Shown here: positions 21,001 to 24,000 of the stretch, piece after piece
Position numbering within the stretch: position 1 is the first letter of the stretch
How the letters are laid out: the number at the start of each line of letters is the position of its first letter
Assembly (NCBI RefSeq): GCF_057098645.1
Contig: NZ_CM169472.1
Length of the DNA: 64,000 nucleotides
Direction: 5' to 3' (one strand)
Program-made: the position numbers

Positions 21001-24000
21001 GGCCGGAATTTAGTAAGACTATCGATCTGGAAACTGCTGGCGGGGTCATTGATCGGGACACCATTAAATGGTGGCTTAAGCAATCACGCGAAGCGCAATC
21101 TGCCATTATGACCGATGAAATCCCGTTAGATGATGCACTGTTACAATTGCGGGAATTTATCGACGAAAACTCCGGTGAATTTTTTGTTCAGGTCTGGGGA
21201 AATGGAGCCAACTTCGACAACACGATTTTGCGCCGTTCATACGAACGGCAGGGGATCCCCTGCCCGTGGCGTTACTACAACGATCGCGATGTACGCACAA
21301 TCGTTGAGCTGGGGAAAGCCATAGACTTCGATGCCAGAACGGCTATTCCATTCGAAGGTGAGCGCCATAATGCACTTGATGACGCCCGTTACCAGGCAAA
21401 ATACGTTTCAGTTATCTGGCAAAAACTGATCCCGAATCAGGCTGATTTTTAATGTTCAACCCCGGTCGTTGCCCACCAGCTATAGTGGCGGCGACCATGA
21501 TTAGCGAACGACGCTCATGGCAAGACTTATTCTGCTCACTGAGTGGGCAAAAGAGGAATTCAGTGAACCGGTCCCAACTCCGAGTACGTTAAGTAAATAC
21601 GCTAAAGCCGGAATGATATTTCCTCTCCCCAAAAAAGTTGGAAGACGCTGGCGAGTGGATCCGCAAGCTCGCTTTGTCGGAATGGTAAACAAGCCGGAGG
21701 TGATCGCCACAGATCACCCTGCTTTGAAGAGGATACTGGAAGATGGCGCGCCCGCGAAAATATAAAACCGATGTTCCGGGATTATCTCCGTATTTTGACA
21801 AAAGAAATAACAAAGTTTACTGGCGTTACAGGCATCCCATAACAGGCAAAAATCACGGTCTCGGCAGTATTGACCAGAAACTGGCAGAAACTATTGCAGC
21901 AGAAGCGAACAGCCGTCTTGCCCGGCAGCAAATGGAACAAATGCTCAGTCTGCAGGAGAAAATTATTAGTGATACCGGCGGTTCATCAACCGTTACCATT
22001 TTTCTGAATAATTACAGAAAAATTCAACAGGAAAGATATGAAAACGGCGAGATCAAACTCAACACGCTGAAACAGAAAGCGGCCCCTCTCAGGGTATTTG
22101 ATGAACGTTTTGGCACCAGACCGTTAGATGCCATAACCGTAAAAGATGTGGTATCAGTACTGGAAGAGTACAAGGCCAGAGGACATAACAGAATGGGACA
22201 AATTTTCAGGAAAGTACTGATCGATGTTTTCCGGGAAGCTCAGCAAACGGGCGATGTCCCGCCAGGCTTTAACCCTGCAGAATCGGCAAAAAAACCGCAG
22301 GTGCGGATATCAAGACAGCGACTGACTTTTGATGAGTGGATGATGATTTATAACGCAGCGGAAAAGGATGGTTACTTTTTACAGCGCGGTATGCTGCTGG
22401 CACTGATGACAGGCCAGCGCCTTTCAGATATTTGCAAAATGCAATTTTCGGATATCCGGGATGGTTATCTTCATGTCGAACAGCAAAAAACAGGAACCCG
22501 GATTGCCATCCCTCTGGCTCTGCGTTGCGATAAATTAAATCTCACCCTGGATGATGTGGTGTCATCCTGCCGCGATTGCGTTCTTAGTCCGTGGCTATTG
22601 CACCACCATCACGCGAAAGGGACAGCTAAGCGCGGCGGGATGGTTAAGCCAGCAACATTAACCGTTGCATTTAAAAAAGCCCGGGATTCTGTGGATTACA
22701 ACTGGCGTGCTAATGGCACCCCTCCCTCTTTCCATGAGCAGAGATCTTTATCAGAGCGATTGTTCAGAGAGCAGGGGGTTGATACCAAAATTTTGCTAGG
22801 CCATTCGAATCAAAAAATGACCGATATTTACAACGACGCACGCGGTAAGGAATGGAAAAAACTGGTCATTTGATGACCAGTTTTGCAGAGGGGTTTTGCA
22901 GAGGTTTTGCAGAGAAAATTAAAAACGATATCCTGCGGAGAACATAAACACCCACGGATCCAGTCGTACCGAGTCTTTTACGGTAGTAACACCAGATTTG
23001 TACTTAGCCGTGGTATCGATATCCATGTACCACACTGACATGTTAACCAACCAGTCACGGTTAATCAGATAATCAACCCCCACCTGCCCGGCAGCTCCCC
23101 AGGAATCTTTCAGACTGAGATCGGAAAGCCCCGCCTCTTTGCCATGATCGTTAAATCCATTATCAAAAAAGGTGGTGTAGTTAATACCTGCCCCAACATA
23201 AGGACGGAATTTGCTGCTGGCATCACCAAAATACCACTGCGCCATCAGTGTTGGCGGCAGATGATGAACGGTTGCAATATCGCCGGTCGCCCGGGTGCCG
23301 ATTTTATGGCGGAACGGCGTCGCTGCCAGTAATTCCACACCAATGTTGTCGGTCGCCATATAAGTAAACGTCAGGCCCAGTTGAGTGTTATTGGTCACGC
23401 TGAATCCGCCCAGACTTCCTAACGTACCACCAGCACCTTCTGTTGGACGTACGGTTGCAGAACCTGCACGCATAAAAAATTCGCCTGCTTCATGCGCAAA
23501 GGCACTGCCAGAGAGAAGAGTTGTTACTGCCAAAGCCGCCACTGTTAACTTTTTCATATCCGCTCCGTCGTTATGGTTATAAAAACGTGACGAATATACC
23601 TACATTGGAGTAACAAATGATCCTACATAGATCACATTACATATGATAATTCACCCTTTATTGATCTGGATTAATTTAGAAGTTGCATTGAGAATCCTGG
23701 TTAACGTGATTTAAATCAATTTTTAAATATTTTCGCTACGCAAATATTAACTCGTTCGCCACTTGCCGCGGTTTGCCCACGCTTGAAGGCCAGCAATTAC
23801 CTCCGCTTTACAAAGATATGCTTTTCCATACAAGACCTGATGCTGCCACCCGAGGCTTAACCAGGGTACAATTGCCCGCTAATTAACACCTGCATAAAAC
23901 TCAAGGAGAGTGCATGTCTATCACGGCGCAGTCCGTATACCGTGACACCGGAAATTTCTTCCGTAATCAATTTATGACCATTCTGTTGGTATCGTTGCTA

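Follow-up and report, generated by a model that had tools for sequence, protein, structure and literature searches.

Direct repeats between the integrase gene and ompW: probable P' arm-type integrase sites of an ompW-targeting lambdoid prophage

In the DNA analysed here (64,000 nucleotides, referred to below as the window) a phage integrase gene and the outer membrane protein gene ompW converge, and a short spacer packed with direct repeats separates their stop codons. The locus raises the question of what these repeats are for, and how they relate to the site at which the prophage entered the chromosome. The sequence comparisons described below lead us to propose, with a probability of about 0.8, that the GTTTTGCAGAG triplet corresponds to lambda P'1-P'3, being the P' arm-type sites bound by the integrase of a lambdoid prophage that targets ompW.

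The original prediction placed three direct repeats in the 45 bp between the two stop codons and stated that they make up most of this spacer. All of this was borne out. By ORF coordinates the spacer is exactly 45 bp long (22874-22918), and GTTTTGCAGAG is present in it in three exact copies, which fill 33 of the 45 bp:

22880-22890, plus strand: repeat 1, GTTTTGCAGAG, nearest to int, proposed P'3-like arm-type Int site
22893-22903, plus strand: repeat 2, GTTTTGCAGAG, proposed P'2-like arm-type Int site
22904-22914, plus strand: repeat 3, GTTTTGCAGAG, nearest to the core (95 bp off), proposed P'1-like arm-type Int site

The triplet starts 7 bp past the int stop. The repeat unit is 11 bp (a 10-mer with a 5' G), the start-to-start spacings are +13 and +11, and Tandem Repeats Finder gave the array a score of 54. 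Beyond these three, no further match to GTTTTGCAGAG with up to one mismatch was found in the 64-kb window. Nowhere else in the window is any 9-mer present three times in a span of 45 bp, and in 200 simulations of the window under a first-order Markov model no such cluster arose.

The two recombination genes next to the array are arranged as follows:

21517-21765, plus strand: xis, excisionase gene, 82 aa, overlapping the start of int (Pfam Exc PF07825, E 1.3e-07)
21743-22873, plus strand: int, lambda-family tyrosine integrase, 376 aa, stop codon TGA at 22871-22873

The homologue of xis is labelled excisionase in the annotation of TR01 and PPompW_699. The N-terminus of Int (residues 2-71) matches the arm-binding domain Arm-DNA-bind_1 (PF09003) with an E value of 7e-22, exceeding the curated cut-off, and the protein also matches Phage_integrase (PF00589). 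Its only relatives in the PDB were lambda Int structures, aligned over the full length (E about 1e-55). Identity to lambda Int is 36%, and residues R226, K249, H331, R334, H354 and Y363 are invariant between the two proteins. Over all 376 aa Int is 100% identical to that of the deposited PPompW phages LC567818, LC567826 and LC567836.

The attachment site was located by comparing occupied and empty loci and by reading the far prophage end, the two checks suggested with the prediction; both bear it out. In an uninterrupted, K-12-type ompW locus (L001) there are no repeats: homology with the window ends 2 bp beyond the ompW stop, and the yciE/ompW terminator hairpin is found there instead. The absence of the repeats from the prophage-free locus supports the view that they came with the phage. 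The far junction of the prophage lies outside the window and was read from the close relatives O145 RM9872 and O157:H7 TR01. At that end both carry the same 28-bp core as the window, followed by the displaced native 3' end of ompW and yciE. Since the far junction has the same core together with the displaced native end of the gene, the att site lies inside ompW:

23010-23037, minus strand: att common core, 28 bp, CAGTGTGGTACATGGATATCGATACCAC in the ompW sense, ompW codons SVWYMDIDTT

The core is taken as the sequence on which all four att forms agree, flanked by B-versus-P and B'-versus-P' divergence. It lies 89-118 bp upstream of the ompW stop and holds an inverted repeat (GTGGTA...TACCAC); its sequence is unrelated to that of the arm repeats. 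A host-specific allele in TUM2802 starts at 23033, and the allele-2 phage arm diverges from 23015 leftwards; strand exchange would thus fall within 23016-23032. The prediction that att is at or inside the 3' end of ompW was therefore correct, the core being within the gene, but its label attR was not: by the lambda convention this junction is attL (BOP'). Reading from int, the order at the junction is int stop, hairpin, triplet, phage-supplied ompW stop and last 30 codons, core, host ompW. As judged from these alignments, the repeats, to which the prediction assigned no function, are phage arm DNA, outside the duplicated att/core sequence. The prophage in the window has an internal deletion unmatched by any complete genome in the collection, and a search of these genomes with window positions 1-9000 as one piece gave no match.

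The ompW gene beside the array is a chimera:

22919-23557, minus strand: chimeric ompW, host 5' part and phage 3' end, 212 aa, stop codon at 22919-22921 (Pfam OmpW, E 1.6e-80)
22919-23009, minus strand: phage-supplied 3' end of ompW, last 30 codons and stop, from the four-way BOP'/POP'/POB'/BOB' alignment and a pairwise alignment with K-12

The suspicion that the phage supplied the 3' end of ompW and that the C-terminal region of the protein departs from K-12 held on both counts: the alignment of att forms assigns the last 30 codons to the phage, and seven residues differ (ANYKLGGAQQHDS in K-12, AKYKSGVTTVKDS here). Within the supplied segment, 22919-22960 is near-identical to native ompW; 22961-23009 is about 50% diverged and encodes a changed loop. 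Codon analysis placed all seven nonsynonymous codons within the 11-residue last hairpin loop, with synonymous changes only elsewhere, and the flanking beta-strands are identical in protein between the phage-borne and the native end. The chimeric protein has the native length, the reading frame being restored after insertion. At the POP' junction the ompW end is that of the phage; the far junctions of TR01 and RM9872 have the native one. As in integration of the icd/phage 21 type, a homologue of the target's 3' end is present in attP, the frame is restored and the native end is displaced.

If the triplet consists of P' arm sites, the opposite arm is of interest. A fourth copy of the repeat was found in the P arm in the same orientation (T[C/T]CTGCAAAAC in the ompW sense, GTTTTGCAGRAG-like in the int sense). 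It begins 130 bp before the start of the core in three P arms (Sp9-type, Sp10-type and L034); relative to the core start the P-arm copy is thus at -130, and the P' copies start at +123, +134 and +147. At -101 the P arm has an IHF consensus site, AATCAATCAGTTA, which is perfect in the Sp9-type and has one mismatch in the others. The arms also show two features that count against the arm-site reading. One P-arm copy is detectable versus two in lambda (P1 and inverted P2): a search of 200 bp of the three P arms for a second, inverted P2-like copy gave no 8-mer match with up to one mismatch. Furthermore, 95-130 bp separate the triplet from the core, and the intervening ompW-coding DNA is without an IHF consensus: in none of the alleles did the DNA from the core to the P' triplet match WATCAANNNNTTR with up to one mismatch. 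The idea that an IHF (H') site is concealed in the diverged ompW-like block (22961-23009), which would have accounted for its divergence, was dropped for lack of such a match.

In the mechanism we propose, Int would use its N-terminal arm-binding domain to bind the three P' sites and the fourth copy in the P arm, and the C-terminal domains of the same protomers would bind the core-type sites that surround the 28-bp core within ompW. Bridging by Int, with IHF at the site beside the P-arm copy, would build an intasome competent for integration and, with Xis, for excision, and the P' arm would remain at the int-proximal junction after integration. Binding by Int, and the division of the sites between integration and excision, are inferred; in lambda, P1, P'2 and P'3 serve integration and P'1 and P'2 excision. 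The literature searched on phage 21, e14 and PPompW contained no description of arm sites, either in those phages or for this Int lineage.

Further evidence for the proposed arm sites comes from relatives of the integrase. Where Int is 53-68% identical, TTTTGCAG is repeated three times with the same +13/+11 spacing, beside other genes or beside the ompW of another species. In an alignment of eight Int lineages the three TTTTGCAG cores were the only invariant columns, and the flanks were unrelated. (Of 80 IMG/VR loci, 11 were informative downstream of int, most contigs being trimmed at the int stop.) Among PPompW variants, substitutions occur only at the edge and spacer Gs 22890, 22892 and 22904, never in TTTTGCAGA. 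More distant relatives that target icd and potC carry triplets of the TTTTGGGG type. In phage 4A7, which targets icd and whose Int is 51% identical, three copies of TTTTGGGGAA come after the int stop and a fourth lies about 130 bp beyond the icd fragment, adjoining an IHF-like site; phage 640R1, which targets potC, has TTTTGG(G/A)GA three times. An exception to this co-variation is the relative L080 (52% identity), in which no triplet was found in the 1.3 kb available 3' of int.

These relatives also bear on the possibility that the repeats are binding sites not for Int but for the excisionase (recombination directionality factor). Excisionases typically bind direct repeats about one helical turn apart; the repeats of the array are direct, with an 11-13 bp period, and a gene for an Exc-family Xis lies just upstream; in some other prophages, e.g. 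KplE1, the sites of the directionality factor are at the int-proximal junction, which also speaks for this possibility. However, the Int/Xis pair is of the lambda family, and the lambda Xis sites are in the P arm, not beside int, whereas the array here is in the P' arm beside int. Conservation points the same way. The N-terminal domain of Int is 58-67% identical in carriers of TTTTGCAG and 46-50% in carriers of TTTTGGGG, and the corresponding values for Xis are 38-63% and 45-46%. L055, L056 and L058 keep TTTTGCAG though their Xis is only 38% identical, and 4A7 and 640R1, with an Xis 45-46% identical, have a different motif. By this sequence comparison the motif tracks the N-domain of Int, not Xis. 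Finally, a lone fourth copy by an IHF site in the other arm resembles P1/H1 and not an Xis filament. Taken together, we regard excisionase sites as improbable.

Still less probable is an operator or array bound by a different protein of phage or host, such as a regulator of int/ompW read-through or a nucleoid protein. Such a role would suit the position of the repeats between convergent genes, where in the lysogen they form part of the ompW 3' UTR beside a hairpin, but the triplet is kept opposite ompW, opposite other genes, or even past 1 kb of cargo (L058). It is linked to the integrase only, and a copy is also found in the other att arm.

The hairpin is the remaining feature of the spacer:

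22862-22880, strand not assigned: hairpin over the int stop codon, stem CTGGTCAT / ATGACCAG, loop TTG

The stem is 8 bp long, with T6 after it on the ompW strand and T4 on the int strand. RNA folding of the ompW strand gave -17 kcal/mol (z = -5.95), and strain DG342-2 has a compensatory pair of changes in the stem (22867 C>T and 22875 G>A). Because a consensus terminator scan did not flag 22862-22880, we infer the terminator role: the hairpin is probably a bidirectional terminator in place of the native ompW terminator. Repeat 1 shares a T-tract with the hairpin on the int strand, and part of the conservation of repeat 1 could have this other cause.

The latter observation leads to the question whether the repeats act as RNA, as part of a terminator or as a 3'-UTR element of ompW or int. 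On the int strand the T-run that follows the hairpin does come from repeat 1, and the 3' UTR of ompW includes all three repeats ahead of the hairpin and T6. Against this, no Rfam family matched anywhere across 22600-23800 and the repeats have no convincing structure of their own; the triplet is without an adjacent hairpin in L055, L068 and L069, 4A7 has a separate terminator, and the P-arm copy is in no such transcript context. We therefore consider a role at the RNA level very unlikely. A functionless tandem duplication by replication slippage, which can produce short arrays and would account for three identical copies in the window, is effectively refuted by the conservation in eight lineages, since the +13/+11 register and the 8-bp cores are kept down to 53% Int identity with every flanking base changed, and the icd- and potC-targeting relatives have a related motif at this position.

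The arm-site reading explains the repeats; the changed OmpW loop is a separate matter. Strand alternation, and the identity of the preceding loop with the published surface-exposed L3, suggest that the changed loop is extracellular loop L4. At least two phage alleles of it exist (KYKSGVTTVKD and SYKFNGTPVKD), the native loop being NYKLGGAQQHD. Capture of the allele from the native ompW of another species was considered and rejected: in 100,044 species, each represented by one genome, a degenerate search for KYKSGVTTVKD yielded only E. albertii, where the match adjoins the same int/P' arm, and no donor was found. OmpW loop 3 has been implicated as a receptor determinant, for TraN-alpha; in the literature searched for loop 4 in such a role there was nothing, only loop 3 being implicated. 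It is conceivable, though rather unlikely, that insertion amounts to an allele swap, a cargo-free lysogenic conversion in which the change in L4 alters recognition by antibody or by agents that depend on OmpW (colicin S4, TraN-alpha of F-like plasmids, OmpW-dependent phages), with the loop alleles perhaps under diversifying selection. The altered loop is a possible phenotypic consequence of lysogeny, one unaddressed in the literature searched.

The junction is common. The 90-bp int stop-ompW stop segment was present in 1728 of 5426 complete E. coli genomes (about 32%), and among the matches listed an integrase was annotated under the match in 25 of 25. The PPompW family, to which the phage in the window belongs (see below), is among the commonest prophage families of E. 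coli, and some of its members in O157, O145 and other pathogenic lineages carry effectors; presumably Sp9 and Sp10 of O157:H7 Sakai and CP-933P of EDL933 are members. In O157:H7, ompW is occupied by prophages in tandem. Three copies of GTTTTGCAGRRG at +13/+11 appear to be a signature of the int-proximal phage end for this integrase clade, whatever the target gene, and such a signature may help to set prophage boundaries and to find attP in tandem or nested arrays. The proposed attachment-site map (core, three P' sites, P-arm site with IHF-like site, replacement terminator) is testable, and the change of motif in the sister clade (TTTTGCAG versus TTTTGGGG), together with the differences in the N-domain, may offer a natural system for studying arm-site specificity.

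How does this attachment site compare with known ones? PPompW prophages have been defined by an integrase whose identity and coverage each exceed 90%, and by ompW split by the insertion (Nakamura et al. 2021, PMC8112680). Here Int is 100% identical over 376 aa, the same protein as in PPompW_14040, PPompW_699 and PPompW_EH2246, and the insertion is in ompW. The published attL/R is 121 bp and 81% identical to ompW (PMC8112680). That paper defines the duplicated att and does not describe arm-type sites, the triplet or the residue changes in OmpW.

The following is shared with lambda attP: a homologous Int (36%) with the same three-domain layout, xis upstream and overlapping int, three tandem sites immediately 3' of the int stop (in the lambda sequence an Int-binding site is annotated abutting the stop), and an extra copy in the same orientation in the opposite arm by an IHF consensus (P1/H1). 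There are also differences. The arm-type motif of lambda is C/AAGTCACTAT and that found here is GTTTTGCAGRRG, with spacings of 13/11 versus about 10 in lambda. Neither an H'-like IHF site nor an inverted P2-like copy was detected here. The distance from triplet to core is 95-130 bp versus about 54-82 bp, longer than in lambda because 91 bp of substitute ompW coding sequence intervenes. In contrast to the intergenic target of lambda, the target here is within a protein-coding gene.

Outside the TTTTGCAG group the closest Int (51% identity) is that of phage 4A7 and its relatives (Bievrevirus), which target icd. The layout of their attP is like that found here: the int stop is followed by three direct repeats (+13/+12) and then, on the opposite strand, by the target gene's 3' end; about 130 bp further on there is a fourth repeat beside an IHF-like site, and the phage-supplied 3' end keeps the target gene intact. 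They differ in the target, icd, in the motif, TTTTGGGGAA, and in having a separate strong hairpin between the repeats and the icd stop. Phage 21 and e14 reportedly integrate into icd in this way (Campbell and co-workers). The arrangement at ompW is an ordinary one, and largely described already.

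The integrase gene and ompW end tail to tail, and the gap between their stop codons (22874-22918) is 45 bp, as in the original prediction. The three direct repeats placed in this gap were found by a sequence search of the window. The features of the region are as follows.

21743-22873, plus strand: integrase (int) ORF, stop codon TGA at 22871-22873
22862-22880 (within 22858-22884), both strands: hairpin overlapping the int stop, followed by T6 on the ompW strand
22880-22890, 22893-22903 and 22904-22914: three copies of the repeat GTTTTGCAGAG, located by sequence search
22919-23557, minus strand: ompW, stop codon at 22919-22921

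The repeat unit is 11 bp long and the copies start +13 and then +11 apart (Tandem Repeats Finder score of the array, 54). Beyond these three, no further copy was found in the 64-kb window when up to one mismatch was allowed. Nowhere else in the window is a 9-mer present three times inside 45 bp, and such a cluster occurred in 0 of 200 Markov-simulated windows.

ompW is flanked on the right by yciC, yciB, yciA and tonB of the E. coli trp-tonB region and on the left by a lambdoid prophage. An empty ompW locus of the K-12 type (L001) aligned near-perfectly with the window to the right, starting at 23010. Over 22961-23009 the alignment was very poor (about 50%), and over 22917-22960 it was near-perfect again, with one mismatch. 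There was no alignment left of 22917, where K-12 has a hairpin shared with yciE in place of the repeats; the repeats are absent from the empty locus. The prophage part of the window is matched most closely by O145 strain RM9872, which has one prophage at this locus; at its far end the same P arm is followed by the core, the displaced native ompW 3' end and yciE. In O157:H7 TR01 two tandem prophages occupy ompW, which allowed the attP (POP') between them to be reconstructed and provided a far junction (POB') adjoining yciE. Four-way alignment of the int-proximal junction in the window (BOP'), POP', POB' and the empty site (BOB') defined the common core, CAGTGTGGTACATGGATATCGATACCAC (23010-23037, within the ompW codons SVWYMDIDTT), as the stretch shared by all four forms, with B and P diverging on one side and B' and P' on the other. 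Because of this alignment and the far end in RM9872, att can be placed within the 3'-terminal part of ompW, whose present end is phage-supplied, both as predicted. The junction was thus correctly located but misnamed: by the lambda convention the int-proximal junction is attL, not attR. The repeats are phage DNA between the int stop and the substitute ompW stop, outside the duplicated att sequence.

Sequence differences between relatives narrow the inferred region of strand exchange to about 23016-23032. TUM2802 has a phage arm identical to that of the window and a very different host ompW allele starting at 23033. In the phages SA53-3 and DG342-2, which carry a second version of the ompW end (allele 2), the differences in this end reach the edge of the core (23009), and in DG342-2 and in the L034 attP they extend into it, to 23015. 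The host allele of TUM2802 (about 23033-23400) is strongly diverged from the core boundary onwards, with many substitutions per 50 bp; a second diverged ompW allele among the matches (entry H30) has 84.6% identity.

The insertion site and its att sequence are already published: the PPompW prophages of Nakamura et al. 2021 (PMC8112680) carry an attL/R of 121 bp with 81% identity to ompW. The window integrase is 100% identical to Int of deposited PPompW phages. The TR01 inter-prophage junction (L004 15350-15900, L005 32780-33330) contains a complete attP-like POP' with a 126-bp ompW pseudogene fragment. Escherichia albertii NBRC 107761 (L093 5600-6100) shares the integrase, the triplet and the substitute ompW end with the window, and its core is joined in frame to a non-ompW ORF (...DWVRQLP|VWYMDIDTTAKYK...), which suggests a secondary-site insertion or a rearrangement. 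The fused ORF presumably resembles the N-terminal two-thirds of rlmC.

We consider it probable (roughly 80%) that the repeats are P'3-, P'2- and P'1-like arm-type sites to which the integrase would bind. No paper describing arm sites of this integrase lineage was found in a literature search. The strongest line of argument for such putative sites is comparative, and drew on those IMG/VR relatives for which the sequence downstream of int was available. Relatives with integrases 53-68% identical all keep TTTTGCAG(A/G)(A/G) three times in the same +13/+11 register, whether inserted beside ompW of another species (L045) or beside other genes (L054, L055/56, L068, L069). When eight lineages were anchored on the triplet, the three TTTTGCAG cores were the only invariant columns and the flanks were unrelated. 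Among PPompW variants, substitutions fall at edge or spacer Gs (22890, 22892, 22904) and none in TTTTGCAGA. In one relative (L058, 2628-3690) the int stop and the TTTTGCAG triplet are separated by about 1 kb of additional DNA, which may be a cargo gene; this spacing indicates that the triplet is a marker of the att arm rather than of the 3' end of int as such. An exception among the relatives is L080 (2622-3964; Int 52%, N-domain 59% identical), where no recognisable triple repeat was found in the available 1.3 kb downstream of int.

Two more distant phages have a layout like that of the window with the motif shifted. The icd-targeting 4A7 (Int 51% identical) carries TTTTGGGGAA three times (+13/+12), and a fourth copy about 130 bp past its icd fragment, adjoining an IHF-like site; the potC-targeting 640R1 (Int 44% identical) carries TTTTGG(G/A)GA three times (+13/+11). 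The window family, too, has a fourth copy, beyond the core in the P arm and in the orientation of the triplet (read in the int sense, GTTTTGCAGGAG or GTTTTGCAGAAG). In three different P arms its start is 130 bp away from the core, and the IHF consensus AATCAATCAGTTA lies about 20 bp on its core-proximal side. A single copy was detected in the P arm, and no inverted P2-like site was found there. The two TR01 P arms are only about 50% identical (ungapped), yet the positions of the arm-site copy and of the IHF-like site are shared.

A Xis-binding array is disfavoured by the position of the repeats and by the lack of co-variation of the motif with Xis. Carriers of TTTTGCAG have Int N-domains 58-67% and Xis proteins 38-63% identical to those of the window, and carriers of TTTTGGGG-type motifs 46-50% and 45-46%, respectively; judged from these identities, the motif follows the Int N-domain, not Xis. 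Against an RNA or terminator element stand the lack of an Rfam match and the relatives that keep the triplet without the hairpin. Neutral slippage is excluded by the conservation across relatives.

The hairpin at the int stop (fold -17 kcal/mol, z = -5.95) has U-runs on both strands, and in DG342-2 the stem has a compensatory C-G to T-A substitution (22867 C>T, 22875 G>A). It probably is a phage-supplied replacement of the lost native ompW terminator and may also terminate int; a simple consensus terminator scan did not flag it.

The suspected C-terminal differences of OmpW from K-12 were confirmed by codon comparison. The phage end changes ANYKLGGAQQHDS to AKYKSGVTTVKDS, and the second phage allele gives ASYKFNGTPVKDS. 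Seven codons are nonsynonymous, all inside an 11-residue stretch (residues about 183-193; 22961-23009) in which NYKLGGAQQHD becomes KYKSGVTTVKD, or SYKFNGTPVKD in L010 and L011 (DG342-2). Because nonsynonymous changes are confined to this loop and the flanking strands differ synonymously only, the chimeric OmpW is under purifying selection with its loop replaced. Strand alternation would make the stretch extracellular loop L4; the loop before it is L3, which is surface-exposed and determines TraN-alpha specificity. Among 100,044 species-representative genomes the allele-1 peptide occurred in one, E. albertii, adjoining the same int and P' arm, and no species with a native ompW that could have donated the loop was found. 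Of the 5426 complete E. coli genomes, 1714-1728 (about 32%) carry the int-ompW junction.

The prophage of the window is internally deleted (1-8650): tail genes (1-2924) adjoin terminase genes (3239-5679), hence the head genes are missing. It also contains an ISEc20-like element (6185-7381). The arrangement was not matched in one piece by any complete genome of E. coli in the collection; O145:H28 strains come closest (3468-9000, 99.8%). By collinearity with the TR01 annotation, the ORF at 11358-12116 (minus strand) is paa, an AcfC-family adhesin gene. Relatives carry the T3SS effector genes nleA, nleH, nleF, nleG and espM1 at the far prophage end, outside the window. In the ompW-yciC interval the RefSeq annotation places a 90-bp pseudogene fragment of a 'YkgJ family cysteine cluster protein' (about 23797-23886), common to K-12-type (L001 2381-2470) and O157 (L002 4198-4287) genomes.

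The finding is real and its original interpretation correct as far as it went, and it is of an ordinary kind. Only the systematic exchange of an OmpW surface loop through lysogeny has some potential for surprise, and this is speculative. The integrase is 36% identical to lambda Int over the full length, its PDB relatives are lambda Int structures only (E about 1e-55), its catalytic set is intact, and an Arm-DNA-binding domain is present (PF09003, E 7e-22). Lambda has three tandem arm-type sites directly 3' of the int stop (L007 1770-1798; stop 1769-1771), where its record annotates an Int-binding site abutting the stop, and the window triplet has the same geometry relative to the int stop. The distance between triplet and core (95-130 bp) is greater than in lambda, and no IHF consensus was found between the two in the window. 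The fourth copy and IHF consensus in the P arm of the window family resemble lambda P1/H1.
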